IMG/VR virus record: IMGVR_UViG_3300010358_000002
Reading direction: 5' to 3' (one strand)
Origin: an uncultured virus (IMG/VR IMGVR_UViG_3300010358_000002)
Taxonomy: Duplodnaviria > Heunggongvirae > Uroviricota > Caudoviricetes
DNA: 64,000 nucleotides
Shown: positions 8,597 to 36,378 of the stretch, piece after piece
Layout: each line of letters begins with the position of its first letter
Numbering within the stretch: position 1 is the stretch's first letter
Program-made: the position numbers and the translations under genes
The notes under the pieces: generated by a model
The model's input: the letters and a program-made list of their open reading frames with translations, nothing else
What the model was told of the DNA's origin: nothing
Database searches by the model: none

Positions 8597-9097
8597 CTAC
8601 AGCAGAGTCATTTGGTGAAGGTGTACGCTCATTGTCCCTAAATTCGTATCGACTAATGCTCGCTTGCCATGCAATAACGAAATAATCATTGCCTGAATAT
8701 CATATACAGGAGTATGAATACGGACCTTCCTTCCAGGTGTGAATGGGTTAACTTGGACTTCTCGTACGAGCACTTTCAGTCCTTCTAATCTCTGCAAGTC
8801 CCATATTACCCTGTCCGGAATCGTGCTGATTTGAGGCCCAAATCTCACGTATCGTGCTCTAACAGGCGTTGATATTAGCATATGGACAGATTCCCCATTT
8901 ACGTCCAATTTCGCAAATATATAGCCTGGATACACAGGTCTCTTTACAACTATAGGTTGTCTCATGCCATGGGGTCGTGTTATCTTATCGTAACGCGGAA
9001 AATATAATTCCACATCAGGGATATTTTCATGCACATGCTCAACGTATTTATTTTGATTCTGCGCGTTTAATCGCAGGAGAGTCCAGCTATTGACCAT
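8597..9097 (-). CDS. nusG: NusG/RfaH-family transcription antitermination factor
   Basis: NGN motifs YFPRY...RPVYPGYIFA, VRFG...TIPD; KOW-like FTPGRKVRI. Confidence 0.85.
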   Translation of the reverse strand: MVNSWTLLRLNAQNQNKYVEHVHENIPDVELYFPRYDKITRPHGMRQPIVVKRPVYPGYIFAKLDVNGESVHMLISTPVRARYVRFGPQISTIPDRVIWDLQRLEGLKVLVREVQVNPFTPGRKVRIHTPVYDIQAMIISLLHGKRALVDTNLGTMSVHLHQMTLL

Positions 9098-10808
9098 CTC
9101 TACTCTCCTCTGGATGCAGCCAGCGTTCTATAATCAAAGAATCAAACATATCAAAAGGAACAGAGATTGTACTACGATACCAACCTCCTTTTCCATAACT
9201 TCTATCATGCTCTAATCCTTTATCGGCTATAAACATTCGGAATCTTTCCGCTTGTCTATCACCTAGACTGAATACCCTCTGGCAATAGAGCAAGCCTTGT
9301 GCCCATTTGAAATAGATCCGATGTTCATCTTCTCTTATAGCAACAGCACCATCATTCTCGCGACCAGATCTTACTAAAGCTGGGATATGGCTATCGAAAA
9401 ATCGCACGAGCATTTCTAGTTCACCAGCATTCTTTTGTAGAATAGTTGGTGGCTCAACTACCATCGCATTTTCTATTGCAACCTGTATCACTCGTTCCCA
9501 CTCCGCCTTCTTAAAGGATGGAGGGAGTACAGTCGCATAAGCCAAACACTTTTCCCGGTACTTCTCTACATTCTTGAATTCAGCAGCACTCATCGGGACT
9601 CTTTCACTCCCTACGTTTATAGTGAAAATGGTCTCACTCCCTCGTTTCGTGATAGTTAATCCTAAATCTTGATGATCAATTCCATTACCTGCGCCTACTC
9701 CATACGGTCGCTGTTTACATGCATGAGCATGGCAACGATTACAAATAGGAGGATTCTTGCATGTATATTCGTAAGCTCGATCCTGCCTATCTTGTTTACT
9801 TTTAAGATCTTTTATCATTTCCTTTAGCTTTTCGCCATCTCCCGTCGGCCTCAACACATTATAATTCACCCATTCTAATACCTTTTCCCAATCTCCAGGA
9901 TATTTTCTCATAAAGAATAGCCCACAGTTGAATAAGAAATAATGTTGATCTCCAGCAGGACATTTCTCTAATGATATATGCCACAGGCATATAGGACCAT
10001 CCCAAAATACAGTTTTGACAGTATCTTCATAAGACTCATTCTCAGGCCATACAAACATTCCTTTAGGATGCTTCTTTCCGTTAGCTCTTCCATTTGCTTT
10101 TGCCTTGAAATCTTCTACAAATAAACCTTTGAAGATATCAAACGTAATCCTCTTCTTCATAGCGTGTATAACAGATTCATACAATTCCATCGCATTACCA
10201 GATTCATTCATACAGCATTGGTCTGGGAATTTATTAGCAGTTGGCCCATAAGGTATGAATATCCAGTTAGGATAACCATCCTTTTCTACTTTCACTTGCT
10301 TGGGGAAAATTTCTTGTCCAGCATATCCTAATTGTGCGGCGATCTGTTTCATTCTCCTAACAGCCAATTCAGCCTCTATTGGCTCGGAAAAGAATAGAGT
10401 AACTCGTAACCCTCCTGACTTGGTGCGAAATACAACCAGAGGCAGCTTTGAATTCTTTATTTTCCACATTTCTTGTGCATAATCAAAATCATAATTCACA
10501 TTATCCTCTGTTTTATCCACATCAATACATGTGAACCAAACAGTGTTGTCGTCTTGTATTGGAGATATTCCTATGAATCTTTCCCCCGATAAATGAGCAC
10601 GCCAATCATCTTCTGTTAATTTTCTATGTCTATATCCAGCAGTACCCTCCTTAAATTTCCACTTTCCTGTTTCTTCATCCTTATTAGCGCCTTTTATATC
10701 ACCATAACCATGGAAACGTTCATTACCTCTAAACAACTCCATTAGTTTCGTAATAATTTCTGCTTGCTTTGAAGCCCCATACGTGCTAAATATATCGTTA
10801 GATGGCAT
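9087..10808 (-). CDS. Archaeo-eukaryotic primase (AEP) family protein with Cys-rich PriL-like region
   Basis: HLSG..IGISP, CIDVD, RTKSGG, EIFPKQ, NWIFIPY; GPICL...YTC..PIC..C...C. Confidence 0.75.
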   Translation of the reverse strand: MPSNDIFSTYGASKQAEIITKLMELFRGNERFHGYGDIKGANKDEETGKWKFKEGTAGYRHRKLTEDDWRAHLSGERFIGISPIQDDNTVWFTCIDVDKTEDNVNYDFDYAQEMWKIKNSKLPLVVFRTKSGGLRVTLFFSEPIEAELAVRRMKQIAAQLGYAGQEIFPKQVKVEKDGYPNWIFIPYGPTANKFPDQCCMNESGNAMELYESVIHAMKKRITFDIFKGLFVEDFKAKANGRANGKKHPKGMFVWPENESYEDTVKTVFWDGPICLWHISLEKCPAGDQHYFLFNCGLFFMRKYPGDWEKVLEWVNYNVLRPTGDGEKLKEMIKDLKSKQDRQDRAYEYTCKNPPICNRCHAHACKQRPYGVGAGNGIDHQDLGLTITKRGSETIFTINVGSERVPMSAAEFKNVEKYREKCLAYATVLPPSFKKAEWERVIQVAIENAMVVEPPTILQKNAGELEMLVRFFDSHIPALVRSGRENDGAVAIREDEHRIYFKWAQGLLYCQRVFSLGDRQAERFRMFIADKGLEHDRSYGKGGWYRSTISVPFDMFDSLIIERWLHPEESRDGQ

Positions 10809-11077: not shown

Positions 11078-12028
11078 ATGAAAACTGCACTCGTCTGCGG
11101 AGCTGGAGGATTTATTGGCCATCACCTCGTTAAACGCCTCAAGAAAGAAGGATATTGGGTCCGTGGTGCGGACCTTCATTTCCCGCTATATTCCCATTCT
11201 CTTGCTGATCACTTCGTTACTGGTGATCTGCGGGATTATGGTTTTTGCTGGAAGGCTGTGAACCAGCAGTGCGAGGAAGTATATCAACTCGCAGCCGAAA
11301 TGGGCGGAGCAGGCTACATATTCACCGGTGATAACGATGCGGAGATCATGCATAACTCAGCTCTTATCAACCTAAATATAGCTGATATCTGCCGCAAGCA
11401 CGAGGTTAAGAAGCTATTCTATTCCTCCTCTGTGTGTATGTATCCTGTAAATCACGATTTCCAATTGGTCCAAGAACACCTCGCATATCCGGCTAATCCC
11501 GATAGCGTATATGGATGGGAAAAGATATTCAGCGAACAGTTATATCAGGCATACCGCCGCAACCATGGATTGCAGACCTATATCGCTCGCTTCCAGAATA
11601 CCTATGGCCCAGAGAGCGATTGGTATAGCGATCGGGCCAAGGCTCCAGCCGCTATATGCCGAAAGATAGCCCAAGCTCCCAATGGCGGAACGATTGAAAT
11701 ATGGGGCGATGGCAATCAATCTCGATCTTTCACATACATAGACGATACTGTAGAAGGAATCTTCCGCCTTATGCAATCTGATTTCCCTGGTCCCGTAAAC
11801 ATTGGCACCGAGGAAATTATCACTATCAAAGATATGGTTGATATAGTCGCGGGTATTGCCGAAAAGCATATCAACATTGCCTGTATTCCTGGTCCTATCG
11901 GCGTACAGGGACGAGGCAGCGACAACCGGTTAATCCGCGAGAAACTTGGATGGGAACCTAAAACAAGGATTCTCTCTGGTCTTACAGATACATATGCATG
12001 GATTGAAGCCCAGTCTCTCAAGAAATAA
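11078..12028 (+). CDS. NAD-dependent epimerase/dehydratase, GDP-mannose 3,5-epimerase-like (extended SDR)
   Basis: GAGGFIG, LAAEMGG, SSSVCMYP, YGWEK (YxxxK), KAPAAICRK, WGDGNQSRSF; own promoter (TTGCGC-18bp-TATACT) and AGGAG RBS. Confidence 0.9.
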   Translation: MKTALVCGAGGFIGHHLVKRLKKEGYWVRGADLHFPLYSHSLADHFVTGDLRDYGFCWKAVNQQCEEVYQLAAEMGGAGYIFTGDNDAEIMHNSALINLNIADICRKHEVKKLFYSSSVCMYPVNHDFQLVQEHLAYPANPDSVYGWEKIFSEQLYQAYRRNHGLQTYIARFQNTYGPESDWYSDRAKAPAAICRKIAQAPNGGTIEIWGDGNQSRSFTYIDDTVEGIFRLMQSDFPGPVNIGTEEIITIKDMVDIVAGIAEKHINIACIPGPIGVQGRGSDNRLIREKLGWEPKTRILSGLTDTYAWIEAQSLKK

Positions 12029-15228: not shown

Positions 15229-15435
15229 TCATCGTTCTCTATCCCACCATGGTACATAGAACCTGGGGCGACGAAGTCCTTTAAACACACGATACGCAAG
15301 CTGCGCCTTAGCGAGTTTGACCATCTGTTCAGCACGTTGGCGACTAACTCCAAAATGACGAGCGATATCATCGTACTTACATCCCTCTAAACGCATATCT
15401 AAAGCTTTGGCATATCGTTGCCAGTTACGGTTCAT
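15229..15435 (-). CDS. Sigma70 region-4-like HTH protein
   Basis: ALDMRLEGCKYDDIARHFGVSRQRAEQM. Confidence 0.7.
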   Translation of the reverse strand: MNRNWQRYAKALDMRLEGCKYDDIARHFGVSRQRAEQMVKLAKAQLAYRVFKGLRRPRFYVPWWDRER

Positions 15436-15699
15436 TTTCTCATTTATGTGTCTGTTCCGGATAATCGGGGTTCTTTGGCTTTCGTTTGCAAACAGTTTCA
15501 TCTCTAATTTGAGTAGCCCAGTCATGGGCAATCTTGCAACAATTACTCAGCTTGTAGCAAGTCTTGCCATTTTCATCAGAGCATCGACTATCACGTTCCC
15601 GACACATATCAATAGCGTGCGCCCCGGATGCATAGAATAGCACCCAGAGCGCCGCGCCTATCAGCAGCAGTTTCTTAGCCTTGCGTCGTTGACGCCAGC

Positions 15700-20994: not shown

Positions 20995-21561
20995 ATGTCA
21001 GAACAAGAAATCCTGGACGCTGCGGCAACCCATCCACTACCAGCCAAGGAGGTAAACCTTAGTGAAATACGTGACAAGGCCAAAGAACTCCGTGACCACT
21101 ATCTTGAAAAAACTTACCTAGAAGAACAACTCAAAGCGCTCGGGAGCAAGATCCAACATGTCGAACGACATGAGCTTATTGATATGTTCGATGCTGCCGG
21201 TATTTCTTCTGTTACTGTGGATGCTGATGGCAATCATCCTCCCTTCATAGCCAAGCGGGCTACCGTCTACGGAGGTAAGATACCGGAGGAACGACGCATA
21301 GAAGCTTTGAATTGGTTTGAATCTGCTGGACATGGTGACCTAGTAAAGTCAGTTATCACCATACAGTATGGAATGCATGAACATGCGGAAAGGCTCCGTG
21401 TGATGAAGTTGTTGAGCGATAACCACGTGGAATATTATACCAACGAATCTGTCCACCATAGTACACTCAAGGCTTTCATTAGAACTGAAATCCAACAAGG
21501 ACATGTAATCCCCATGGACTTGCTTGGGGGATACATGTTTGATGAGGTAAAGATAAAATGA
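20995..21561 (+). CDS. Conserved phage protein of replication modules
   Basis: AGGAG RBS; ALNWF..GHGDLVK...VHHSTLKAFI. Confidence 0.75.
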   Translation: MSEQEILDAAATHPLPAKEVNLSEIRDKAKELRDHYLEKTYLEEQLKALGSKIQHVERHELIDMFDAAGISSVTVDADGNHPPFIAKRATVYGGKIPEERRIEALNWFESAGHGDLVKSVITIQYGMHEHAERLRVMKLLSDNHVEYYTNESVHHSTLKAFIRTEIQQGHVIPMDLLGGYMFDEVKIK

Positions 21562-24372: not shown

Positions 24373-24457
24373 TCAACTGTTGCGTTCCACCGCATTTATA
24401 GCTTACAATGCCCTTAGCAGATTCCTTCTGGAGTCTGTGGAAACAGGAGTGATGACT

Positions 24458-25246
24458 ATGGCTAAAGAACCTGGAACTGATGTAACTATTCGTACAGAGC
24501 TACCGGTAGAGCTGCTTGAAGAAACTGCAAAAGATGCAGGGATGGGGGTAAGCTTCAAGCCAGAAGACCAGTTACTGCCATTAATCTATGTGCTGCAATC
24601 AAATTCACCGGCTGTGGATAAGCGTGGTGATACCTACGTGGAGGGAGCCGAGGCTGGTGATTTTTGGCTGAGAAATGCCCTAGACCCCATCGCAAATGGG
24701 GAGGAAGGAATCTCAGTGATACCATGTGAAATGCAGCGCACATGGATTGAATGGCTCCCTAACCGGCAAGGGTTCGTCGCAAGGCATGACAATCCGCCTT
24801 CGGATATGGAAACTAGAAAAGAGCGGGACGACTCTGGTCGTGAAAAAACTATCCTTGTGCGCGGTGAAAATGGGAATATCATACAAGACACGAGGGAGTT
24901 TTTCCTGCTTGTAAATGGACAACCCTTCGTGCTACCTTGCACTGGGACCAAGCATACCTTCGCTCGCCAGTGGAACACCTTCTACAAACAGTTCACCCAT
25001 CCAAAGACTGGCGATGTCATGCCTGCCTTCAGTCGCAAGTATCGGTTGACCACTGTCCCAGCAAGCAACGCTATCGGCAAATGGTTCGGTCTAAAATTTC
25101 AAGACGAGGGATGGGTCAAAAAGTCTGAGTATGAAGCGGCGAAACAGTTATGTCTTGCAGTAAGGAAAGGTGAAAAGCGTGCCGAAACGCCAGACGCAAG
25201 GCACGAAGAGTCGGGCACAGGCGACGGCTCGGAGATCCCTTTCTAA
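24458..25246 (+). CDS. Putative ssDNA-binding/annealing protein
   Basis: AGGAG RBS; EDQLLP.IYVLQSNSP...GAEAGD; acidic tail ending EIPF; upstream of helicase. Confidence 0.65.
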   Translation: MAKEPGTDVTIRTELPVELLEETAKDAGMGVSFKPEDQLLPLIYVLQSNSPAVDKRGDTYVEGAEAGDFWLRNALDPIANGEEGISVIPCEMQRTWIEWLPNRQGFVARHDNPPSDMETRKERDDSGREKTILVRGENGNIIQDTREFFLLVNGQPFVLPCTGTKHTFARQWNTFYKQFTHPKTGDVMPAFSRKYRLTTVPASNAIGKWFGLKFQDEGWVKKSEYEAAKQLCLAVRKGEKRAETPDARHEESGTGDGSEIPF

Positions 25247-25350: not shown

Positions 25351-26910
25351 ATGATCGAGCCAACGATCTTTCTAGGCCCACCCGGAACAGGTAAGACAAC
25401 AACACTACTAGACACCGTTGACCAGGAGATGGCCAACGGTGTCCCTCCAGATCGTATAGGATTTATGACCTTCACCAAACGTGGTGTAGAAGAGGCTATT
25501 ACTCGTGCTAGTGCTCGTTTTAACCTTGACCGTAAGCAATTTCGATATTTCAATACCCTTCATAGTGCTGCATTTAGACATCTCGGCCTTAGCACTAATC
25601 AAGTGTTTACTGGAAAACGAGTTTATGAATTTGGTGCTGCCCATGGACTCGAGCTCCACGGTGGCTTATCGTCTGACGATGGAACATATACAAGTTTTTT
25701 CGGTGACGATCTAATCCTATTTCTTGAGAACTATGCTCGCATTACTCAGCAACCATTGGAACAAGTGCTAAGCAAATATGATTACGCCTTACCTGATTCC
25801 GATCGTGCTTGGCGAGCTATTCGTGCTCTCCATGCCTATAAACAGGAGCAAGGGCTGTATGATTTTACTGATATGCTTGAGGAGTTTATTAAGATAGACG
25901 ATCCACCACGACTGGAGGTGTTATGTGTCGATGAAGGACAAGACCTCAGTGAAATACAGTGGACCATGGTCGGCCAGCTATCCCGTCACGTTAAGCGTAT
26001 GTATGTCGCCGGAGACGATGACCAAACTATCTTCACATGGGCAGGTGCTTCAGAGCGATTCATCCACATGCCTGGTCGGGTTCACCAACTTACAAGAAGC
26101 TATCGAGTTCCTCGAAAAGTACACCACCTTGCCGTCAGAATAATTGAACAGATATACGACAGGCGTGAAAAAGACTGGGAACCAAGAGACGCACTAGGAT
26201 CTTATAACACTTTAGAAGGAATCTCAAGGCTAGATCCCGGTAAGCTAGACCCAGGCCTCGGCAACGTCATGTTGCTTGGGCGAACAGTAAAGATGCTAAG
26301 GCAAAAGTTCATCCCATATTGTAGACACCATGGGCTCCTATATCGTTACTTCGAAAACCCAAGTATCAAACCAACTCAAGCGGTTGCGATCGACGCATGG
26401 AATCAACTCCGACAAGGTTTTCGCATATCGGCGGAAGATGCTGTACGTATATACGATTTACTCCCGTCGGAAGGCCACAAGAAAAAGAAAGGGCTAGTAA
26501 AGAAAGGTTTCAAAGTACAACTCAATCGGTTGGCAGATCAACCAGATCCTCCGAAAATCACTATAGAAGAACTGCGACATGATTATGGGCTATTGGCGGA
26601 GGGAGAGTGGAAAGATGTTTTCACTGAGATCGAACCTAAGGACGTGGAGTATATCCAAAAAGTACTCGATAATGGGTTCAGTATATTGGATAAGCCTCAT
26701 ATACACATCTCTACGATTCACAGAGTCAAAGGAGGGCAGGCAAACACAGTTGTTCTTTTATCTGACACTCCGAAAGCATCCGAGCGACTTGCCGCTACCA
26801 ACAGAGACGAAGAGCGACGCGTTTTTTACACAGGGATCACAAGAACCTACGAAGACTTGATCGTAGTGCAACCAGACAGACGGCATTATTTCGGGGACTT
26901 GTTCGACTAA
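25351..26910 (+). CDS. UvrD/Rep-like superfamily 1 helicase
   Basis: GPPGTGKTT, TLHS, DEGQD, GDDDQTIF, SYR, STIHRVKG, FYTGITR. Confidence 0.92.
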   Translation: MIEPTIFLGPPGTGKTTTLLDTVDQEMANGVPPDRIGFMTFTKRGVEEAITRASARFNLDRKQFRYFNTLHSAAFRHLGLSTNQVFTGKRVYEFGAAHGLELHGGLSSDDGTYTSFFGDDLILFLENYARITQQPLEQVLSKYDYALPDSDRAWRAIRALHAYKQEQGLYDFTDMLEEFIKIDDPPRLEVLCVDEGQDLSEIQWTMVGQLSRHVKRMYVAGDDDQTIFTWAGASERFIHMPGRVHQLTRSYRVPRKVHHLAVRIIEQIYDRREKDWEPRDALGSYNTLEGISRLDPGKLDPGLGNVMLLGRTVKMLRQKFIPYCRHHGLLYRYFENPSIKPTQAVAIDAWNQLRQGFRISAEDAVRIYDLLPSEGHKKKKGLVKKGFKVQLNRLADQPDPPKITIEELRHDYGLLAEGEWKDVFTEIEPKDVEYIQKVLDNGFSILDKPHIHISTIHRVKGGQANTVVLLSDTPKASERLAATNRDEERRVFYTGITRTYEDLIVVQPDRRHYFGDLFD

Positions 26911-27308
26911 TGGAAACGCTTATGGGACTATATCAAATCTTTGATTCTATCTTACCAGATGAGAATGGTTGTCTCAACTTCCCTTCTCTTTCAGATAAGC
27001 CTAGGAGAAATCGTTATGTGTGGAAAGTTATAAGCGGAGAACCACGCGTCTGGGTGCATAGAGCGGCTTTGGAACGCAGGCTAGGAAGACCAATTCGTCC
27101 TGGATTTTATGCTCTACATTCTTGTGACAATAGGATCTGTGTTAATCCGAATCATATTTATGAGGGCACGTATAGAGACAATGCTAATGATAGGTCTACT
27201 AGGAATCATGGTAGTTACCTAATAGGAGATGATCATTGGACTAGAAGACATCCGGAATGGAATGTGCATGAAAGAGACGAATATGGAAGATTTAAGAAGA
27301 CGTCCTGA
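26910..27308 (+). CDS. HNH endonuclease (homing-type)
   Basis: VHR...ALHSCDNRICVNPNH...GT..DN..D. Confidence 0.85.
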   Translation: METLMGLYQIFDSILPDENGCLNFPSLSDKPRRNRYVWKVISGEPRVWVHRAALERRLGRPIRPGFYALHSCDNRICVNPNHIYEGTYRDNANDRSTRNHGSYLIGDDHWTRRHPEWNVHERDEYGRFKKTS

Positions 27309-27702
27309 GGGCAAGCTAATCTTGCTTGTAGACTTTGACGGATGCGTTCATAGTTATGCCTCGGGCTGGCAAGGTGCTACAATAATTCCTGACCCACCGG
27401 TTAAGGGAGTGTTTGAATGGTTGGAAACTGCTTTGATCTATTTTGATATACATATCTACTCTGCTCGATCTTCAGCTCCAGGGGGCAAGGAGGCGATGTA
27501 TGAGTATGTTAAGTGTCATGCTGGCAGGGATAGCACTCTTGCTATGCGTCTTAAATTTGTATCAGAAAAGCCAAGTTGTTTTCTTACTATTGACGATCGT
27601 TGCATTCGTTTTGATGGTAACTGGTCTGACCATCGCTTTGACCCGGTGAAACTTCTGGAGTTTAAATCATGGTACGAATTGAACAAATCAGCAATCCAAT
27701 AG
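27283..27702 (+). CDS. HAD-superfamily phosphatase
   Basis: Motif I VDFDG, SAR, KP, motif IV IDD. Confidence 0.85.
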   Translation: MEDLRRRPEGKLILLVDFDGCVHSYASGWQGATIIPDPPVKGVFEWLETALIYFDIHIYSARSSAPGGKEAMYEYVKCHAGRDSTLAMRLKFVSEKPSCFLTIDDRCIRFDGNWSDHRFDPVKLLEFKSWYELNKSAIQ

Positions 27703-28580
27703 AGCGTTTCGTTGCCTTTATTGCGGAGCGGGAGGCTATCCGTACCCGTAGATTTATTATGATGAAGCCTTGGCCATGGACAGAAGACCCTATATTACAG
27801 GAGTTTCGGTTCACAAATATACACAGGGAAGACGATGCAGTATCCCAACATTACCAGCGTACTATTCGCAATCGGTATAGCAACGATCCTCGTGTATTAC
27901 CCGCCACAGTCATCTATCGCTGGTTTAATAGGATTTCTACTTGCAATGCTATATTTAATAAACCTGATGTAAACAGCCTGTCAGTGTTTGAAAGATACGT
28001 ACAGAATTATGACATAGATCTCCTAATAAACTGTGTGGAGGCACTTCCACCTCCTCACGTAACAGGAGCATACATTATTCAAGGGAAACCCGGCCTTCCT
28101 AAAGCCAAGGGAGTAATCTATTATATTCATCGATGGCTTTTGAAACCATGGTTCGAACTTTACACAGCCTGGAAGGAGAAGCCTCCGCTACTGTCTGAAA
28201 TGTACGCAGAGCTTCATGGAGAAGGCTTGGGAAGCTTTATGCGAGGACAACTTGTCGCAGATCTCAAATACCTACCATTCATGTTAGAGGTAGAAGATTG
28301 GTGGACCTGGGCTACTCGAGGACCTGGAAGTATGCGCGGTTTGAACGTAGTATTTGATCGACCAATGATGGCCCCCTATGCTAAGGATCAATGGTTATTT
28401 GAGCTAAAGATATTGAGTGAAAGGGTTACTCCTTTGTTGGCAGGATATGGGATGGAACGCCTGCACAACCAAGATCTACAAAACTGTCTATGTGAATGGA
28501 GTAAATACACGAAAGTATTGACACTGCAAGGCCGTCCCCGACAAGTCTTCAAGAATAGGGAGCAAGTCCATGTTCAATGA
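27669..28580 (+). CDS. aGPT-Pplase clade 1-like DNA base hypermodification protein
   Basis: ERE.IR..R, PWTEDPILQEFRFTNIHREDD, RWFN, TGAY, GLGSFM..QLVADL, GPGS.RGL, QNCLCEWSKY. Confidence 0.85.
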   Translation: MVRIEQISNPIERFVAFIAEREAIRTRRFIMMKPWPWTEDPILQEFRFTNIHREDDAVSQHYQRTIRNRYSNDPRVLPATVIYRWFNRISTCNAIFNKPDVNSLSVFERYVQNYDIDLLINCVEALPPPHVTGAYIIQGKPGLPKAKGVIYYIHRWLLKPWFELYTAWKEKPPLLSEMYAELHGEGLGSFMRGQLVADLKYLPFMLEVEDWWTWATRGPGSMRGLNVVFDRPMMAPYAKDQWLFELKILSERVTPLLAGYGMERLHNQDLQNCLCEWSKYTKVLTLQGRPRQVFKNREQVHVQ

Positions 28581-29328
28581 TCTGCAAATATTAATTCCTT
28601 CTCGCTCCCGAGCCAAGAGTCAAAAGACCATCTACAATATGTCAGAAAGACTTTGGCCGATTACAGCTATCGTTGTGCCTGCGACACAGTACAGGGAATA
28701 TCGCACTACGATACCAATGCAGATAGGAATAATAGGTTGTGATGGCATTGGGAATTGTGCTACTCGGCACTTCATGTTGCATACCAAGAAGACAGGCAAG
28801 CTCATTACATTCGATGATGATCTAACATTCTATAGACGCACTGAAGATGGTACCAAGTTTGAAAGAATCTTTGGGAAAGATACAGAGCGCATGGTAGAGA
28901 TAATCCTGGCTTATCTAGATGATTACCCATTCGTAGGACTAGTCGATAAATTCATGAGTCAGCACACTCCCCGTAGGCACAAGGAATGTGCTAGATTCAA
29001 TGAGGTATATGGATACAACCGGGATACCCTACCGGTCCCGTGGCCTGAGTTTCGAGTGCCTCATGAAGAAGAACACGACTTTCACCTACAACTGATCACA
29101 CGTGGTCACAAAACAGCCGTAATCACAGAGTATAGTAAAGGACAGCGGACCTGGGCTCCAGGTGGTTGTGCCGATTGGCGTAAGACAGAAGTCTTTGAAA
29201 AGGCTTATGAACAGATGGGTCAGTTATGGCCTGGAATAGTCAGCTTTGGTGGCAAGCCGACAGACTTTATGCCATACCGAATACGATATAATTGGGAAGC
29301 AGCTAAGAGACAAGGTGGAATAACTTGA
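28570..29328 (+). CDS. GT-A fold glycosyltransferase (GREB1/TET-associated GT-like), copy 1
   Basis: IPSRSR, TR..ML, FDDDL, EEHDFHLQL, APGGC. Confidence 0.8.
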   Translation: MFNDLQILIPSRSRAKSQKTIYNMSERLWPITAIVVPATQYREYRTTIPMQIGIIGCDGIGNCATRHFMLHTKKTGKLITFDDDLTFYRRTEDGTKFERIFGKDTERMVEIILAYLDDYPFVGLVDKFMSQHTPRRHKECARFNEVYGYNRDTLPVPWPEFRVPHEEEHDFHLQLITRGHKTAVITEYSKGQRTWAPGGCADWRKTEVFEKAYEQMGQLWPGIVSFGGKPTDFMPYRIRYNWEAAKRQGGIT

Positions 29329-29384
29329 CTGTGGGTAAAGCATAATTGAGCTTGCGTTCACATGTGGCAAAAGGTAGCATAGTT

Positions 29385-30176
29385 ATGCGAATAATCATAC
29401 CAACACGAGGCCGCACGACCAACCAGTTAACGATAATGTCGTTAATTGGTTGTGACCTTATCAAACGTACCATTCTAGTCTGTCCACAAAACGAGTACAA
29501 CCGAATACGTTCAATGCGTGACGACTACGATGTCGTGGCGCAGCCAGAACAGGATTGGAAGATAGCTGAAAAACGGGCCTGGATCTTGGAGGAATGGCAT
29601 AGACGTGGTGAGGAAAAGATCATCATGCTAGATGATGACCTGCGGTTTGCCACTCGTAAAAGCGAAGGCGATTGGCACCTACGGGAAATTAAAGGTGAGG
29701 AACTTATTCCTGAGTTCCAGCGTATCGAGGATAAACTTGGGCCTGAGTTTCCACATGTAGGGTTCGGACAACGACAGGGGAACAACCAACTCGCAGAAGT
29801 CGGCTGGAAATCACCCGGTAAGATGTGCTATGCACTCGGGTTCTATTTACCGGTTGTTCTCAAGGAGTGTGTTCTTCGGCGTATCGCGTTGCGGGAAGAT
29901 ATGGAACTGTCACTGCAACTGCTATTGAAGGGCTATCCCAATGCCATCTGGACCTCTACTGTTGTGGACCAGCGTGGTTATGATAAGCCTGGAGGAACTA
30001 GCAATGAACGTACTGTCGAAATCTCTAATGCTGAAGCTCGTAGATTGGCTGAGCTATTTCCAGGGTACGTTTCAACTGTAGAGCGCGCATATAAATCTAG
30101 CCTACCCCGCATAGAAGTGATGGTTCAATGGCAAAAGGCGTTGGAGGATGGCCAACGTAGACGAGCTACAAAGTAA
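29385..30176 (+). CDS. GT-A fold glycosyltransferase (GREB1/TET-associated GT-like), copy 2
   Basis: IIIPTRGR, KRAWIL, MLDDDL, EDMELSLQLL..GY, PGG; promoter-like TTGCGT-17bp-TAGCAT upstream. Confidence 0.85.
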   Translation: MRIIIPTRGRTTNQLTIMSLIGCDLIKRTILVCPQNEYNRIRSMRDDYDVVAQPEQDWKIAEKRAWILEEWHRRGEEKIIMLDDDLRFATRKSEGDWHLREIKGEELIPEFQRIEDKLGPEFPHVGFGQRQGNNQLAEVGWKSPGKMCYALGFYLPVVLKECVLRRIALREDMELSLQLLLKGYPNAIWTSTVVDQRGYDKPGGTSNERTVEISNAEARRLAELFPGYVSTVERAYKSSLPRIEVMVQWQKALEDGQRRRATK

Positions 30177-30894
30177 GCTTCGGGACTTATCAAAAGTTTC
30201 ACTGGAGTATAGAGCAGACTATACCCCGGTCCCACATTTTGCGACCGAGTTCCATGGATATAGCCAAGCTCATATTTCATTAGCAGTATTTAAGAGGACT
30301 GAGCCACCAGAGCTTGCCTTGGCTCAGGCTAGGTTTATGGATTACCTTGGGCCAGAAGTATGCCCTAGAATTTATGCTGTTAATGATGATTCCTATTGTA
30401 TGGAATATCTGTACCCGGTTGAGTTTCACCATGATAGTTTGATTGTGCAAGAAAGTTTTTTAGAAAGACATGTTTGGTGTCGAGAAGTTAAAGTACGTGA
30501 TAGAGATCCATTGTTTGATACGCTGCCTCTATGGGTAAAGGAACCAAAGTGTGTGATCCATGGTGATCCTACCCTTGATAATGTGTTAATGACTAAAGAC
30601 GGGATGATGCGTATTACTGATCCTATTCCGCCCGCATTTCTTAGGAAGCCAAGCATCAAGGGTGTAGACCATGGAAAAATCTTACAATCTTTTCTTGGAT
30701 GGGAAGTCGTACTCCGTGGTGCTCCTCAGATACAGTATCAATGGCCGAACTACATGCAGGATTACGATACAGCAAAACGAGCCATCTTCTGGGCCATGGT
30801 TGCTCTTAAACGAATTGCCAAGCGTGATATCTTCGATAGTGCAACCCAATGGGCGACCAGAGTAGGAAAGGGATTGGAGGAGTTATGCAAGTAA
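30148..30894 (+). CDS. APH/choline-kinase-like phosphotransferase
   Basis: PRIY...YCMEY, IHGDPTLDNV, ITDP, DHGK. Confidence 0.8.
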   Translation: MANVDELQSKLRDLSKVSLEYRADYTPVPHFATEFHGYSQAHISLAVFKRTEPPELALAQARFMDYLGPEVCPRIYAVNDDSYCMEYLYPVEFHHDSLIVQESFLERHVWCREVKVRDRDPLFDTLPLWVKEPKCVIHGDPTLDNVLMTKDGMMRITDPIPPAFLRKPSIKGVDHGKILQSFLGWEVVLRGAPQIQYQWPNYMQDYDTAKRAIFWAMVALKRIAKRDIFDSATQWATRVGKGLEELCK

Positions 30895-31574
30895 TCATCC
30901 TAGCAGCAGGACAAAGTCACCGGTTTAAGGAAGCTGGATATAGTATTTCTAAACCATTCTTAGAAATTGAATGGCGAGGATTAGTGGCTCCTATGCTGGA
31001 ACATGTTCGCTATACCATTCCGTTAGAATTTAAGGGAGTCACAGTAGCCACATTGATAGGTGGGAGCCCTATTAGCTCAGAAGTAAATATCATAGGAATT
31101 GAAAATACAAAGGGTCCAGCAGATACAGTCCGACAAGTCATAGAAAAAATAGAGCCACAGTCCTGTTTAATTATGGATTCAGATATTCTTAACTTCACTA
31201 ATGACCTTCGTGGAATAACCAATCTACCAGATTCATACATCGGTGTTCTAGTTTGTCGCAGCAACAATCCTGCTTTTTCATATGTTGACAGCATAGAGTT
31301 GTTTAATGTGATAAAGGAAAAGAACCGTATATCTGAGTATGCAGTAAGGGGAGCCTATTTTGTTGGAAAGGATGTCATGGGTGAATTCACGTTTGCCCTG
31401 GATGCTGCAACTACTGGTCAACAAGAACCGTTTGTCAGCCATGCCTTCGATCTAATGGGGTGTAAGAAAATGGCAATCGAAACGACCTATGTACCGGTAG
31501 ATTGGGGAACACCCCATGATGTAGAATTAAGCGGCGCAAGAATCATAACAGAACGGAGGAAGGAATGTTCGTAA
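30885..31574 (+). CDS. Sugar-phosphate nucleotidyltransferase
   Basis: ILAAGQSHRF..AGY..KP, TKGPA, DSD, KEK..IS, GAYF, WGTP. Confidence 0.85.
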   Translation: MQVIILAAGQSHRFKEAGYSISKPFLEIEWRGLVAPMLEHVRYTIPLEFKGVTVATLIGGSPISSEVNIIGIENTKGPADTVRQVIEKIEPQSCLIMDSDILNFTNDLRGITNLPDSYIGVLVCRSNNPAFSYVDSIELFNVIKEKNRISEYAVRGAYFVGKDVMGEFTFALDAATTGQQEPFVSHAFDLMGCKKMAIETTYVPVDWGTPHDVELSGARIITERRKECS

Positions 31575-32599
31575 TCAATGCTACCAACGTTCGTGATGCC
31601 CTGCCTACGGCTGTGAAGTATGTCACACGCTTTGGAGAAACAGAAATAACCAGGAATGGACGAGCCAAAGTATCGCCCAAACCTGTGACTATCCGTTACA
31701 GGTATCCGAAGAATCATGTCTTAATCAATGCAGTGCGTGATGCAAATCCATTCTTCCACCTAATGGAAGCTATGTGGATGTTATCAGGTAGGAACGATGG
31801 GGGGTTCTTGGACAATTATATCAAGGACTTCAGTAAACTGTATGGAAATACCAATGGCATCGTGCCTGATGCCTATGGGTATAGATGGCGAACTCAGTTT
31901 GGTTATGACCAACTCACCTCACTTGTTCAATTATTAAAGGAAGACCCTACCACACGGCAAGCGGTCTTACAAATGTGGGATGATGATTTACAAACCAAGG
32001 GGTCTATCAAGCCCTGTAATCTTGTAGCTACATTTCGTATTCGAAATGATAAGCTGGACATGACTGTATTCAATAGATCCAATGACCTAATCTGGGGTTG
32101 TTGTGGGGCGAATGCAGTTCACTTTCCTCTTGTACAGGAATACCTTGCCAGTATGATAGGAATACAGCAGGGGGAATATTGGCAAATCACTACCAATCTG
32201 CACCTGTATCAAAAACATCTTGATAAGTTTCATGATCGTATAGAACTTGGCAGAGATTTACATGTAGCCCTGAGGGATAAAGGTGACTACGAGAATACAG
32301 CTCCTTTGATAAATGATCCTGCACATTTCGATGAAGACTTAGAAGATACCATGGCTATCATAGAAGATGTAAACCAAGATCTAGAAACCTATGATGGTAA
32401 CATATCCAACACATTCCTAGCGAATGTGGTTATCCCTATGGCCAGGGCACATCGTCACTATAAGAATAGAGCTATGGCTGAAGCGTTTGTAGAGTTAGAT
32501 AAAGTGATCGCTGCAGACTGGAAGCGTGCAGGAGTAGAGTGGGTGAAGCGACGAACCTCGGTACGAGTGACGGAGCAAGCAGATGATCAACCGGTATGA
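31565..32599 (+). CDS. Thymidylate synthase homolog, probable dUMP hydroxymethylase
   Basis: NPFFHL.E..W, AYGYR, TRQA, catalytic PC, RSND..WG...N (Asn at the pyrimidine-specificity site), NLHLY. Confidence 0.85.
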   Translation: MFVINATNVRDALPTAVKYVTRFGETEITRNGRAKVSPKPVTIRYRYPKNHVLINAVRDANPFFHLMEAMWMLSGRNDGGFLDNYIKDFSKLYGNTNGIVPDAYGYRWRTQFGYDQLTSLVQLLKEDPTTRQAVLQMWDDDLQTKGSIKPCNLVATFRIRNDKLDMTVFNRSNDLIWGCCGANAVHFPLVQEYLASMIGIQQGEYWQITTNLHLYQKHLDKFHDRIELGRDLHVALRDKGDYENTAPLINDPAHFDEDLEDTMAIIEDVNQDLETYDGNISNTFLANVVIPMARAHRHYKNRAMAEAFVELDKVIAADWKRAGVEWVKRRTSVRVTEQADDQPV

Positions 32600-33101
32600 G
32601 ATATATCGTTCCCGGTATTTGGCTGGATGTGTCAAGCGGTATTCGACTTGGCCTATGCTGCGTGAACAGACAGTAGGGCATCATTGTTGGCGAGTCGCGT
32701 GTATATATGTTGAAATATTTGGGATGCCACGAGCAGAGGTCCTCTATTTTTGTCTTCATCATGATAGTGGTGAACTCTGGTCTGGTGACATACCGTTTGG
32801 AGTTAAGAAACAAATGCCAGGATTAAAGGACCTGATGACCCAGGCAGAATCTGTCGGGTTACATCAACTAGAATTAAGACTACCAGAACTTACTAAGGAA
32901 GAGCGTATCAAAGTTAAAATATCTGATCTTCTAGAAATGCACGAAACAGGTGAGCATGAAATGAACCTTGGTAACAAGTACGCTGAGCCTATTGTACTGG
33001 ATACTTTGCATGAAGCACAACTTCTAGCGAAAGAATCTTGTATGAGTCAACATGTCAACGACTGGCTAAGAGAAAGAGGGAGTGGCAAACATGTCCGCTA
33101 A
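32583..33101 (+). CDS. HD-domain 5'-deoxynucleotidase/dNTPase (YfbR-like)
   Basis: VKRY, TVGHH, HD..E..SGDIP..VK, VKISD. Confidence 0.85.
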   Translation: MINRYEIYRSRYLAGCVKRYSTWPMLREQTVGHHCWRVACIYVEIFGMPRAEVLYFCLHHDSGELWSGDIPFGVKKQMPGLKDLMTQAESVGLHQLELRLPELTKEERIKVKISDLLEMHETGEHEMNLGNKYAEPIVLDTLHEAQLLAKESCMSQHVNDWLRERGSGKHVR

Positions 33102-33633
33102 CGACAAGAAAATCAAGCACTATGCATCTGAATATCAGCACTGGGATTTGGCTGTAGTCATTCCTCTGGGTTACTTCGAGGGATGCTCAACCAAATATGT
33201 CTGCCGCTGGCGTAAGAAGGGCGGGTTAGAAGATCTGCAAAAAGCGATGCATTATCTGGATAAGCTCATAGAATTTTATCCACTCAAGATTCCTGTACGC
33301 AATCTTAATCGAAGTGAAATACAGTACGAAGTAAGTCGTTTCTCAGCCGCCAATAAGCTGAGTATAATAGAAGAAGAGTATATTCTACTGCTCTGTAACT
33401 ATAAACATGAGGATGACCTAAGGACAGCACGGCTAGTGCTTGAAGATATCATCGACCTAGCCCATGAACCTGACTTTCATAGTGAGGTGGCTGAAGAAAC
33501 CGGCCTTGATCGTAAACAAGCTAAGGAACTTAACCTCGCTAAAGCTTACAATGTAGAACCGAACCGTCCCGGCACACCAGATGATGGAGGACACCATGCT
33601 ACTGGACAAACTGATCCCGAAGAACTGGCGTAG
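33091..33633 (+). CDS. DUF3310-like protein with C-terminal PolA O-helix-like segment
   Basis: HY...YFEG..TKYV.RW.KKGG.EDL.KA.HY; then DFH..VA..TGL.R..AK..N..KAY. Confidence 0.8.
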   Translation: MSANDKKIKHYASEYQHWDLAVVIPLGYFEGCSTKYVCRWRKKGGLEDLQKAMHYLDKLIEFYPLKIPVRNLNRSEIQYEVSRFSAANKLSIIEEEYILLLCNYKHEDDLRTARLVLEDIIDLAHEPDFHSEVAEETGLDRKQAKELNLAKAYNVEPNRPGTPDDGGHHATGQTDPEELA

Positions 33634-33873: not shown

Positions 33874-35862
33874 ATGGGCGCGCGTAAACCACCAAGCTTT
33901 GATCAATTCCCTCTATTCGTACCGGATAGCTCATGGGTTCCACCCACCGAACTACCGGACTTATCACGCGAGACTGAGGTCGCTATCGACACAGAAACGC
34001 GCGATGATATGCTCGCCAAAGATAAGGGACCAGGGTTCTATGCCTACGAAAAAAGCAATCCCAACACTGGATTTATATGCGGAATCTCCGTTGCGTGGCG
34101 GGATCAGTCTATATATATCCCTCTCCGGCATTACGGAGAACCATGCTATTTCGATATTGATCTCATCCAGCGATGGCTCAAAACCCTCGTTAGTCAGGAC
34201 AAGACCAGATTCGTATTCCATAATTTTGGATACGACTGGGGATGGATCGACGCCTCATTTAAAATTGAACCTCCATCCCTAATAGATGACACGATGGCCA
34301 TGGCAAGCATGGTCAATGAGAACCTTCCTTCATTTGCCTTGGATAATCTTTGCCGAACATTTGGACTGCCCGGTAAAGATGAAAGACTCTTAGTTGAGGC
34401 AGCAGGAAACTACAAGATCAGGCCAGAAGACGTTAAGAAATACATCTGGCGTTTGGGAAGTAAGTTCGTTGGCCCATACGCTGAGCAAGATGCTAAGAGC
34501 ACATTGCAGCTTGCTCAAAAGCTACGTCCTTTATTAGCAGCAGAAAACTTAGAAGCTGCATATCAGGTTGAATGTGATTTATTACCTATCACACTAAAGA
34601 TGAAACAACACGGTATTCGTGTAGATACACTAAGAGCTGAAGAATATTCCGATAAGATTTTAAAGCGTTGTGAAGAAGAGTTATTTGATCTTAGCAAAGC
34701 TGTACAAGATAAAGTCACAATTAAGAGCCTAAGACAGAATCGCTGGTTAACAGAAAAATTCATAAAGTTTAACTTAGAACCACCCAGAACTCAAAAAGGA
34801 CATTGGAGTTATGAAAAAAGTTATATGGCTCACCATGAGCATTGGTTTCCTCGTGCAGCCTATAGAATCAAGCATCAATGGGATTTGGCTGAAAAATTCT
34901 TGCAGAAGTTTATCCTGAAGTATGCTCTTAACGGTAGGATTTATGCTACGATTAATCAATTCCGCAGTGAATACGGAGGTGCTCGTAGTCACCGGTTTAG
35001 TTACAGTGACCCACCGCTTCAACAAATGCCAAGCCGAGATGATGAATGGGCTCCTGTTATTAGATCGTGCTTTATACCAGAAGATGGGCAGCTCTGGTGT
35101 AGCATTGACTATAGGCAACAGGAATATAGGCTCATTGTATTTATAGCTGAACGCTATAGAGCAAGAGGAGCTAAGAAGGCTGCGGATAGGTATCGCAATG
35201 ATCCTGATACAGATTTCCACCAATATGTAGCAGATATCACACGGCTCGAACGTCGTCGTGCTAAGGATACTAACTTCGCCAAGGCTTATGGAGCAGGGGT
35301 AAGGAAGTTTGCTTTAATGACAGGCTTAGATGAAACTGAAGCAATGGAGGTTTATAATCAATATGATGAAGAGCTGCCATTTGTCCGTGAAGCGTCGGAT
35401 AAATATACCCGATTTGCAGCACAAAACGGGTACATAACACTGATCGATGGAGCACGCAATCATTTTAACTTATATGAACCAATTATGAGAGACTTTGCTA
35501 GGGAAGATCAATATGAAAATATGGATTGCACCCCTTGCCTAGAGGAAGAATATGAAAGGCGTAAAAATGATAAGAACCATCCCTGGTACGGGGAGCGTGG
35601 AAAGCGTGCCTATACTCATAAAGCTTTCAACCGAATGATTCAGGGCAGTGCTGCTCGACAGACTAAGAAAGCCATGGTCAATCTTGTTAAAGCAGGATAT
35701 CAGCCTGTGCTGCAACTTCATGATGAACTATGCTTTAGCCTGAATAATGAAAAAGAGGCTCGTGAATGTGCTCAAATAATGCAAGAGGCAATGCCAGTGA
35801 TCACTATTCCAATGCTGACTGATGTGAAGCTTGGTAAAAGTTGGGGGCAACTGAAAAAATAA
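33874..35862 (+). CDS. polA: DNA polymerase family A with 3'-5' exonuclease
   Basis: ExoI DTET, ExoII HN..YD, ExoIII YAEQD; motif A DYRQQEYR, motif B RRRAKDTNFAKAYG, IQGSAA, motif C HDE. Confidence 0.95.
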   Translation: MGARKPPSFDQFPLFVPDSSWVPPTELPDLSRETEVAIDTETRDDMLAKDKGPGFYAYEKSNPNTGFICGISVAWRDQSIYIPLRHYGEPCYFDIDLIQRWLKTLVSQDKTRFVFHNFGYDWGWIDASFKIEPPSLIDDTMAMASMVNENLPSFALDNLCRTFGLPGKDERLLVEAAGNYKIRPEDVKKYIWRLGSKFVGPYAEQDAKSTLQLAQKLRPLLAAENLEAAYQVECDLLPITLKMKQHGIRVDTLRAEEYSDKILKRCEEELFDLSKAVQDKVTIKSLRQNRWLTEKFIKFNLEPPRTQKGHWSYEKSYMAHHEHWFPRAAYRIKHQWDLAEKFLQKFILKYALNGRIYATINQFRSEYGGARSHRFSYSDPPLQQMPSRDDEWAPVIRSCFIPEDGQLWCSIDYRQQEYRLIVFIAERYRARGAKKAADRYRNDPDTDFHQYVADITRLERRRAKDTNFAKAYGAGVRKFALMTGLDETEAMEVYNQYDEELPFVREASDKYTRFAAQNGYITLIDGARNHFNLYEPIMRDFAREDQYENMDCTPCLEEEYERRKNDKNHPWYGERGKRAYTHKAFNRMIQGSAARQTKKAMVNLVKAGYQPVLQLHDELCFSLNNEKEARECAQIMQEAMPVITIPMLTDVKLGKSWGQLKK

Positions 35863-36347: not shown

Positions 36348-36378
36348 GGGACCCCGAGACCATCGGGGTCCTCTTTTT
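36348..36378 (+). terminator. Intrinsic terminator
   Basis: ggaccccga-gacca-tcggggtcc followed by TCTTTTT. Confidence 0.75.

Follow-up and report, generated by a model that had tools for sequence, protein, structure and literature searches.

A putative gene block for directly glycosylated 5-hydroxymethyluracil in the genome of an uncultured tailed phage

Glycosylated cytosine derivatives in phage DNA are well documented, and the thymidine lineage is known only with amine and amino-acid adducts and with glycans borne on a linker. Thymidine hypermodification in the phages M6, PaMx11, ViI, phiW-14 and SP10 involves a dUMP hydroxymethylase, a P-loop kinase of 5-hydroxymethyldeoxyuridine (5-hmdU) in DNA and the transferase AADT (aGPT-Pplase2) (Lee 2018, 2022; Wen 2024). 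For cytosine, a preprint reports that a bifunctional HAD-APH enzyme, a cytidylyltransferase and a glycosyltransferase (GT) are all required for heptosyl- and diheptosyl-5-methylcytosine in E. coli, that the downstream one of two adjacent GT-A genes installs the first sugar, and that phage GT-A DNA glycosyltransferases are structural relatives of JGT (bioRxiv 10.1101/2023.12.21.572611). In the HY126 system, the HAD enzyme AfhF and AfhE, a homolog of the nucleotidyltransferase-kinase fusion RB69 gp52:53, are reported to convert arabinofuranose-5-phosphate, by way of its 1,5-bisphosphate and then its 1-phosphate, to UDP-arabinofuranose, the donor for the arabinosylation of 5-hydroxycytosine (5hoC) in DNA (PMC13326640). 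Besides, a survey of about 25,000 GT contigs found that GT-A genes neighbour ThyS (a TS homolog) and 5mYOX about equally often, and that genes for epimerases, secondary GTs and APH proteins occur close by. Here we describe a stretch of 64,000 nucleotides (the window) from an uncultured virus of the Caudoviricetes (IMG/VR record IMGVR_UViG_3300010358_000002), which carries among its replication genes a block of nine genes predicted to attach sugars directly to 5-hydroxymethyluracil (5-hmU) in DNA.

The window covers part of a tailed-phage genome, its replication genes occupying the + strand at ~19.8-40.6 kb and its genes for tail, baseplate and lysis proteins the - strand from 40.9 kb onwards. 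The nine open reading frames (ORFs) lie on the + strand between the genes of a UvrD-type helicase (25351-26910) and an HNH protein (26910-27308) on one side and that of the DNA polymerase PolA (33874-35862) on the other, and encode in this order a HAD-type phosphatase, the protein HMUDK_hel, two GTs of the TAGT family (GT1 and GT2), an APH-fold kinase, a sugar nucleotidyltransferase (NT), a thymidylate synthase (TS) homolog, an HD nucleotidase and a DUF3310 protein. The initial annotation had described nine mostly overlapping genes with these identities, and both points were confirmed: eight of the nine junctions (counting that of the HNH and HAD genes) overlap by 10-80 nt, the junction of GT1 and GT2 being a 17-nt gap, and the identities hold by Pfam, PHROGs, motifs and profiles. 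No + strand terminator-like site with more than 7 stem pairs was found within the block, and the first strong one stands at 36348-36372. We regard the cluster as real and coherent, and its gene content appears to combine the logic of the cytosine clusters with the replication and nucleotide genes at the core of the M6/PaMx11 group. What was observed comprises gene identities, folds, catalytic motifs, synteny and co-inheritance, every chemical step being predicted from them, and on this basis we incline, with slightly better than even confidence, to a two-stage pathway in which 5-hmU DNA carrying a sugar added by GT2 would be extended by GT1 with a phage-made nucleoside diphosphate (NDP)-sugar.

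The conservation of the block was followed in 80 viral-contig loci with a TS alignment and three further loci with the kinase, in which ORFs were scored with the window proteins, PaMx11 gp46 and gp49, and PhiJL001 gp23. Among the 90 TS-bearing rows are those of the window itself, of named phages and of fragments; L008 and L014 represent a single contig, and L006 is a fragment identical to the window. In the stretches covered, HMUDK_hel was present in 76 of these 90 rows, most of which continue with HD, DUF3310 and PolA genes; the HD gene follows that of the TS homolog, and DUF3310 follows HD, in most related loci. The same order is seen in PaMx11, where the P-loop kinase gp49 is followed by HMUDK_hel (gp50), TS (gp51), HD (gp52), DUF3310 (gp53) and PolA (gp55). 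The AADT/FAD/acetyltransferase/kinase module of PaMx11 is missing from the window; in its stead, four genes (GT1, GT2, kinase and NT) separate HMUDK_hel from TS, and the HAD gene precedes HMUDK_hel. Five other viral contigs, with TS identities of 51-65%, keep the order of the block, and elsewhere the decoration genes change from locus to locus: AADT with a P-loop kinase, a P-loop kinase alone, one GT, the full set, or none detected. Judged by this gene content, HMUDK_hel-TS-HD-DUF3310-PolA is a conserved core, to which decorating modules appear to be attached interchangeably. In addition, in PhiJL001 (gp23; L001 7836-8435) and in three AADT-type contigs (L032, L034 and L045), a gene for an Nmad5 domain protein (PF18757, 1.7e-16) separates TS from the gene of the GT or of HMUDK_hel; this recurrent member of the clusters is missing from the window.

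The TS homolog (31565..32599, +; PF00303, 6.4e-25; phrog_5131, 5.3e-96), the proposed dUMP hydroxymethylase, finds its best phage relatives in Pseudomonas siphophages of the M6/PaMx11/Ab18 group, at 40-43% identity over the full length (top value 42.8%). It is 40% identical over its full length to PaMx11 gp51, which has the same neighbours (HMUDK_hel, HD, DUF3310 and PolA), and PaMx11 DNA is reported to carry a base derived from 5-hmdU (Lee 2022). Residue rules for this family, in E. coli numbering, are given in a recent study: Asn177 specifies dUMP and Asp at that site dCMP, and D169N marks newly found flavin-dependent 5-hydroxy-dCMP synthases (PMC13326640). The window protein contains the string RSNDLIWGCCGAN, and the Asn of its GCCGAN segment pairs with E. 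coli N177 in the HMMER alignment with one residue inserted in the query, in agreement with the first assignment of this Asn, the exact column differing between HMMER and MAFFT. GxxGAN or GxxSIN is kept in the PaMx11, ViI-like and Spounavirinae homologs, and T4 gp42 has Asp in this segment. The catalytic Cys146 is present in a P-C-[NHT] context (IKPCN pairs with APCH of E. coli, the Cys being invariant in all nine aligned homologs), Asp169 is retained (RSND) so that the D169N signature is not found, and the pattern RS[NQ]D...GxxGxN recurs in 146 of the 150 nearest representatives at 50% identity. Since the Asn177 equivalent and Asp169 are both kept, the protein points to a uracil-type substrate and away from the hydroxylase type.

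The same residues bear on a cytosine pathway, in which 5-hydroxymethylcytosine or 5hoC would be glycosylated as in T-even phages, RB69 and the metavirome clusters. Such a pathway would agree with the fact that so far all experimentally shown phage systems with TAGT enzymes or with kinase, HAD and NT act on cytosine derivatives. It is nevertheless very improbable for the window, where Asn stands at the position at which dCMP enzymes have Asp, residue 169 is Asp and not Asn, HMUDK_hel belongs to the same gene cluster, and the TS homolog is orthologous to those of 5-hmdU phages and just 20% identical to T4 gp42.

The claim of the initial annotation that this enzyme makes 5-hmU stands as regards the uracil-type Asn and is weakened by the missing Asp143 signature. 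According to the rules cited above, a bulky hydrophobic L143 goes with a methyl product and Asp or Glu143 with a hydroxymethyl product (PMC13326640). Position 143 of the window protein is Ile (SIKPC, followed by Lys144), and YGNTNG takes the place of FSDDG, although KDxPC or SDFMC is found in PaMx11, PhiJL001, phiRSL1, LuckyBarnes, Menlow, Nachito and T4 gp42, and Asp143 in all eight compared hydroxymethylase-type homologs outside the window lineage. Across the 90 TS rows the residue is Asp in 69 and another in 21 (A 12, I 6, P 1, S 1 and T 1). All of this speaks against 5-hmdUMP as the product. The rows without Asp143 include the whole subclade of the window; a GT is nearby in 17 of the 21, AADT with P-loop kinases in two, and neither in the remaining two, one of which is a truncated fragment.

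A rival reading therefore has this TS subclade making dTMP or another C5-substituted dUMP, so that the GTs would need a different acceptor or the base would be different. It draws on the replacement of KDxPC and FSDDG, present in other hydroxymethylase-type homologs, by Ile143/Lys144 and YGNTNG, on the variation of residue 143 (A, I, P, S or T) inside the subclade, and on the recent discovery of flavin-dependent 5-hydroxylation in this family (PMC13326640). However, the hydroxylase signature D169N is missing and Asp169 kept, HMUDK_hel, HD and DUF3310 stay linked to the gene, and a long C-terminal extension together with 37-40% identity ties the protein to the hydroxymethylase-type clade and not to canonical ThyA. 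The subclade is monophyletic (15 distinct sequences, FastTree support 1.0), its nesting among Asp-type sequences having a support of 0.74, and most of its members are GT-linked. In its basal branch (L024/L025), which is sister to the other members, the TS gene comes directly after a PF18748 5-hmdU DNA kinase (43.9 bits) and a PF18724 AADT (47.1 bits), both above the Pfam cut-offs, and because these two enzymes need 5-hmU DNA, their presence supports a 5-hmU product. Moreover, no Asp was found by a regular expression at the third position before the Cys in ~30 of the 142 nearest representatives with a readable Cys motif, so Asp143 is common and not universal in the family. We consider the rival improbable and 5-hmdUMP the likely product, a prediction from sequence that falls short of certainty because the Asp143 signature is missing, which is a real caveat.

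The subclade without Asp143 (L012-L025 and the window), in which xKPCNL and FSKxxGxxG replace KDxPC and FSDDG and residue 143 is A, I, P, S or T, is a side result of interest in its own right. One member, the 78-kb viral contig L024, carries at 1994-8065 two 5-hmdU-kinase-like genes, AADT, an HNH gene, a 2-oxoglutarate (2OG)-Fe(II) oxygenase and an ORF with a phage-tail-collar domain, all upstream of a TS homolog with Ala143; HMUDK_hel was not detected there, and the locus may be a further variant of thymidine hypermodification.

The core partner of the TS homolog is HMUDK_hel (27669..28580, +), an HhH DNA-glycosylase-fold protein whose match to PF18723 (4.5e-32) scores 112 bits against a cut-off of 25 and spans positions 4-274 of 281. 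HMUDK_hel is Pfam's newer name for aGPT-Pplase1: JGI labels some PF18723 members 'alpha-glutamyl/putrescinyl thymine pyrophosphorylase clade 1', and Pfam now lists the sister family PF18724 as 'ADDT'. The original label of aGPT-Pplase1 is thus upheld. The accompanying statement that aGPT-Pplase proteins travel with 5-hmdU hypermodification needs the qualification that the characterised transferase belongs to clade 2 (AADT) and not to aGPT-Pplase1. Homologs of HMUDK_hel are present in 127 phage records, and the domain is often found away from a P-loop kinase (38 of the 76 rows bearing HMUDK_hel have none in the stretch), which makes Pfam's description, 'helical domain of the 5-hmdU DNA kinase', look too narrow.

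The AF2 model of HMUDK_hel (pLDDT 92.1) is all helical, as expected for an HhH DNA-glycosylase-like fold; Foldseek searches of the PDB with this model returned weak matches, none at E <=0.001, and no significant PDB sequence match was obtained for HMUDK_hel, the kinase or the HAD protein. Cys275-Glu276 is conserved without exception in the 70 distinct homologs compared, which come from kinase-type, GT-type and bare loci. In AADT gp46, Cys247 attacks C6 of the flipped base (PMC11472151), and the local motifs are alike (ILCKWKSH in gp46 and CLCEFSKY in the window protein); from the aligned ranges (model 2-294, chain 5-265), which are not a residue-level alignment, Cys275 would lie near gp46 Cys247. 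The alignment of shallow clade-1 and clade-2 (AADT) profiles by hhalign gave a probability of 0.2, so the kinship of HMUDK_hel with AADT is drawn from the fold and a short motif. HMUDK_hel is probably a core, catalytic and base-flipping partner of 5-hmU DNA synthesis, and it might present the base to the first modifier, perform C5 chemistry through a Cys-C6 adduct, or proofread U against T.

Thirteen longer metagenomic proteins (P0181-P0193) fuse the HMUDK_hel domain to DNA_pol_A, an AAA_25 helicase, PriCT_2 or DUF5906. The CLCE motif is retained in 12 of them, the thirteenth being truncated before the motif, and some of the fusions could be read-throughs of gene calling. By analogy with the UDG-PolA fusions of SP-15-like phages, they suggest a role coupled to the replisome, and the replisome-linked, HhH and Cys-Glu nature of the protein is a further side result interesting in its own right.

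GT1 (28570..29328, +; PF20691, 3.3e-14; phrog_842, 1.8e-29) and GT2 (29346..30176, +; PF20691, 9.7e-14; phrog_842, 1.8e-33) are GT-A glycosyltransferases of the TAGT family, the likely start of GT2 being the Met of MRIIIPTRGR at ~29385. Both had been seen as paralogous TAGT-like enzymes, a view borne out by scores of 53.7 and 52.2 bits against a cut-off of 27.5 for PF20691 (profile positions 2-205 and 1-205 of 205, respectively), by 26% identity between the two (E 2e-12) and by the DDD motif in each. D96-D97-D98 is invariant in all 17 GT2-type sequences, and DDD occurs in 35 of 37 GT rows, the other two being truncated. In the tree of these 37 rows, the GT1 clade (8 rows, support 100/100) is confined to contigs with HAD, kinase and NT, and the GT2 clade (13 rows, support 98/99) includes the TS-adjacent GT of L020, L021 and L023, which are loci without sugar-activation genes. 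Because GT2 orthologs occur in such sister loci, GT2 is proposed as the first, base-proximal transferase acting on 5-hmU in DNA, and GT1 as the second, extending transferase that would use the phage-made NDP-sugar. The GT protein matches only six phage records, namely phiRSL1 (two), LuckyBarnes (two), PhiJL001 and one uncultured phage.

These GTs and the sugar genes could also act away from DNA, on a host surface glycan (lipopolysaccharide (LPS) or capsule) or a protein, for example in superinfection exclusion. Kinase, HAD and nucleotidyltransferase pathways also feed the heptose of LPS, about 65% of phage GT-A/GT-B contigs lack a neighbouring base-modification gene in a published metagenome survey, and the window also has a stray nucleotide-sugar epimerase/dehydratase gene at 11078-12028. 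A function off DNA is nonetheless decidedly unlikely, given that both GTs are of the TAGT family and, in the window as in the five full-block contigs, are placed within the replication module between HMUDK_hel and TS, that no + strand terminator-like site of the strength given above precedes 36348, and that the epimerase is missing from 10 of 10 related viral records, including 97% and 100% complete phages that carry the full GT/kinase/NT module.

The phage-made donor is attributed to three genes. The first encodes a small capless HAD-type phosphatase (27229..27702, +, likely start 27283; phrog_23773, 2.6e-19; phrog_1238, 4e-9) with the motifs DFDG, S60/R62/S63, K96 and D104-D105, invariant in five of five aligned orthologs, and with HAD-like leads at 0.91 in the ESM Atlas; motifs, PHROGs and these leads are the basis of the family assignment. 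It is proposed as the sugar-bisphosphate or sugar-phosphate phosphatase of the unit. The second (30148..30894, +) encodes a small-molecule kinase of the APH/choline-kinase fold with intact catalytic residues, proposed as a sugar-phosphate (anomeric) kinase. It has 60 metagenomic homologs, and K49, H138-G-D140, N145 and D158 are invariant in the 39 of those that were aligned; its AF2 model has a pLDDT of 92.7 and no PDB match by Foldseek at E <=0.001. Among its viral structural neighbours are fusions with sugar-phosphate nucleotidyltransferases and with HAD hydrolases, and in BFVD it matches RB69 ORF052c (E 1.1e-3, TM score 0.52). The third gene (30849..31574, +, likely start Met13 at ~30885; NTP_transf_3, 2e-3; TIGR03992, 9.3e-9) encodes a sugar-1-phosphate nucleotidyltransferase with an invariant N-terminal LAAGxSxRF...KP signature, for which a six-sequence profile over residues 12-222 matched the PDB entries 5z09 (2.6e-8), 2ggo (9e-8) and 4evw (1e-7), and also GlmU and MurU.

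HAD, GT1, kinase and NT occur together in the window and the five other full-stretch contigs (L007, L008/L014, L016, L019 and L022); HAD, kinase and the GT1 clade are missing from all other rows, and one weak NT-like match was seen in L069. Viral fusion clusters also join APH to NTP_transferase and HAD to NTP_transf. Being co-inherited here and fused in other viral proteins, kinase, phosphatase and NT appear to form a single sugar-activation unit, which agrees with the logic first assigned to them and with that shown for heptosyl-5-hydroxymethylcytosine and arabinosyl-5hoC phages. The more specific reading of an NDP-heptose-type route survives as one possible sugar among others. HddC is the heptose-1-phosphate guanylyltransferase, and a heptose-specific NT was rejected as HddC, the best single-sequence PDB match at 3.2e-5, faded to 0.014 with the profile. 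With no isomerase gene in the block, the host must provide the starting sugar phosphate. The three genes of the window would be equally compatible with a phosphatase that acts first, as in salvage of the MupP/AmgK/MurU type.

A kinase in this position also allows a modification at T without simple O-glycosylation, in which the kinase, HMUDK_hel or both act on the polymer, by phosphorylating 5-hmU or the first sugar or by activating C5 through Cys-C6 addition. This would yield a glycan linked through phosphate or bridged in another way, like those of SP-15, YerA41 and Carin-5. The known oligosaccharide-thymidines contain phosphate (PMC12686479), and since the scan of window ORFs found no P-loop 5-hmdU kinase, a non-homologous kinase could act in its place. 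This alternative, too, is unlikely, if somewhat less so than the others: in other viruses, proteins of this kinase family are joined to sugar-phosphate nucleotidyltransferases and HAD domains, such kinases act on free sugar phosphates in the closest phage systems characterised, and PhiJL001, LuckyBarnes and the loci with a single GT combine HMUDK_hel with a GT in the absence of a kinase.

Taken together, the preferred two-stage pathway would begin before replication, with the TS homolog converting dUMP to 5-hydroxymethyl-dUMP and the YfbR-like HD 5'-deoxynucleotidase (32583..33101, +; PF12917, 1.9e-7; phrog_6047, 1.2e-25) draining the competing canonical dNMP from the dTMP pool. The DUF3310 protein (33082..33633, +; PF11753, 2.1e-5; phrog_5839, 2.2e-27), host kinases or both would carry 5-hmdUMP to the triphosphate; the label 'nucleotide kinase' is attached to DUF3310 PHROGs and to some phage records, and the protein, a putative relative of T7 gp1.7, is possibly a nucleotide kinase acting at this step. 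The phage PolA would then incorporate the modified dNTP to give 5-hmU DNA, with HMUDK_hel as the conserved core partner of a base-flipping HhH fold like that of AADT gp46. On the polymer, GT2 would transfer the first sugar to the 5-hydroxymethyl group from an NDP-sugar available in the host, forming an O-glycoside like that of base J, and GT1 would add the second sugar from the phage-made donor. To make that donor, the APH-fold kinase would phosphorylate a host sugar phosphate at C1, the HAD enzyme would remove the other phosphate and NT would produce the NDP-sugar; alternatively, the HAD enzyme would act before the kinase. The fuller proposal, that a directly O-glycosylated, two-sugar 5-hmU replaces T and that HMUDK_hel, whose Cys-Glu dyad would be that of the AADT transferases, is no accessory of a kinase and instead a Cys-dependent HhH enzyme, possibly coupled to the replisome, acting on 5-substituted uracil in nascent DNA, is advanced only tentatively, the odds being rather against all of its parts holding at once.

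Apart from residue 143, several results count against this pathway. No published case of a sugar placed directly on 5-hmU in a phage was found in the literature searched, so the step in which a TAGT enzyme acts on 5-hmU is left without a positive control. None of the window ORFs scanned was recognised as a dCMP deaminase, dUTPase or P-loop nucleotide kinase, the HAD protein has no match among Pfam, NCBIfam or PDB sequences, and the loss of HddC under the profile search takes away a defined sugar. Besides, the DNA of the block was found in assembled contigs only, in nine listed runs, all of soil metagenomes, and no RNA data set was among the runs listed for window DNA.

As regards the surrounding genes, the helicase upstream is of the UvrD/Rep type (+; PF00580, 1.9e-22; phrog_1967, 1.4e-58) and the polymerase downstream is a family A enzyme with a 3'-5' exonuclease (+; PF00476, 1.3e-42; PF01612, 3.6e-10). 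The HNH endonuclease gene (+; phrog_1872, 9.2e-18; HNH_3, 1.3e-3) overlaps both the helicase and the HAD genes. It looks inserted because in the relative L008 the helicase comes directly before the HAD gene with no ORF between, and it is probably a mobile, homing-endonuclease-like element outside the pathway. The epimerase/dehydratase mentioned above (11078-12028, +; PF01370, 4.8e-45; phrog_540, 1.2e-80) is an extended short-chain dehydrogenase/reductase standing alone among - strand early genes, with GDP-fucose synthase, LegB and dTDP-glucose dehydratase as best NCBIfam matches, all far under the cut-offs. It was rejected as a pathway member and, because it is missing from all ten related records, we regard it as an accessory of this phage. 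A NusG-like protein, an AEP-TOTE-type primase (PF22548, 1.4e-15), a sigma-70 region-4 protein and homologs of Pam3 gp33 and gp34 (PF23984 and PF23977) are further products of the early and replication region, from genes at 8597-10808 (-), 15229-15531 (-), 20995-21561 (+) and 24380-25246 (+). A nucleotide search against phages gave a sole match, of 78 nt, to phiRSL1, and the closest sequence record is a 15.6-kb fragment that stops within the block.

If the prediction is correct, sugar placed directly on 5-hmU would fill the missing quadrant of the table of pyrimidine hypermodifications, a two-sugar form would be the first direct glycosylated 5-hmU reported from a virus, and the system would be a bacterial-virus counterpart of base J. 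It would also offer biotechnology new DNA glycosyltransferases together with a compact cassette for sugar activation, and would predict that such phages resist restriction and CRISPR nucleases. Moreover, the comparative data raise the question of the role of HMUDK_hel and of how far the Asp143 rule reaches across the TS family, and the cultured phages phiRSL1, PhiJL001 and LuckyBarnes, which have similar gene sets, make these questions approachable at the bench.

Among the known systems, base J of kinetoplastids, made by the hydroxylases JBP1/2 and by JGT, resembles the product predicted for the window in having a sugar O-linked to 5-hydroxymethyluracil in DNA. It differs in that 5-hmU would arise in the window from a TS homolog at the nucleotide level and not from a dioxygenase on DNA, that the replacement is predicted to be genome-wide and not site-specific, and that a second sugar and a phage-made donor are predicted; since no dioxygenase was found (no member of the 2OG-Fe(II) or TET_JBP families among the window ORFs scanned with Pfam), the block is not a base-J system. 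SP-15, YerA41 and Carin-5 have glycans of the thymidine lineage and, like the window, a TS homolog and nucleotide-sugar and GT genes beside the polymerase gene, whereas theirs are large myophages with a pentyl-type linker, phosphate and a PolA fused to UDG (uracil-DNA glycosylase); their GT genes are set apart from those of the window by description only.

Closer in gene content are phiRSL1 (ORF228-238), PhiJL001 (gp19-gp26) and LuckyBarnes (gp38-gp41), which like the window have HMUDK_hel, a TS homolog and one to three TAGT GTs, PhiJL001 and LuckyBarnes carrying the minimal trio of HMUDK_hel, GT and TS. In phiRSL1 there are three TAGT genes and, as in the window, an APH-domain protein, a nucleotidyltransferase and a HAD_PNKP phosphatase, the similarity of these three to the window proteins being at motif level only (pairwise BLASTP). 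The TS homologs of the three phages, in contrast, are only 27-38% identical to that of the window and keep Asp143, and no report on the chemistry of their DNA was found in the literature searched. Such a combination may already have been predicted by Iyer et al. in 2013. The segment ORF228-ORF238 of phiRSL1 adds a gene annotated as galactose-3-O-sulfotransferase and an APS-kinase-like P-loop protein (PF01583, 2.7e-15), a hint of either a sulfated DNA glycan or a 5-hmdU kinase that has been misnamed. The description of the block as a new pathway in the initial annotation was therefore too strong, since these phages carry TS, HMUDK_hel and TAGT genes and the survey has GT-A beside ThyS.

The cytosine-glycosylating phage clusters share with the window tandem TAGT GT-A enzymes, a TS-family enzyme for the acceptor base (5mYOX or a TS homolog in some of them) and a phage APH-fold kinase, HAD enzyme and nucleotidyltransferase, which in their case make NDP-heptose or arabinofuranose donors (Burke 2021; Pyle et al., bioRxiv 2023; RB69/DLP3/HY126 arabinosyl-5hoC, Lee 2026). 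Where two GTs are adjacent in those clusters, the downstream one installs the first sugar, which is the role proposed for GT2 in the window. The kinase, NT and HAD enzyme are separate genes in the window and fused in those clusters. The window also differs from them in that its TS homolog has the uracil-type Asn together with Asp169 and is associated with HMUDK_hel, HD and DUF3310, and in that its block is without a methyltransferase, a dioxygenase or a sugar isomerase. Finally, compared with the M6/PaMx11-type systems, the window has no PF18748 and no PF18724, its decoration genes are two GTs with sugar activation, and its TS homolog is without Asp143. Because the kinase (PF18748) and AADT are missing, the block is outside the AADT system: neither a 5-hmdU DNA kinase or other P-loop kinase nor a PF18724 AADT was found among the window ORFs scanned, by the same method that did detect PF18748 and PF18724 genes in PaMx11 and L024. 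The M6/PaMx11-type loci and the window nevertheless have an orthologous core in the same order, and the decoration of 5-hmU after replication would be their common logic.

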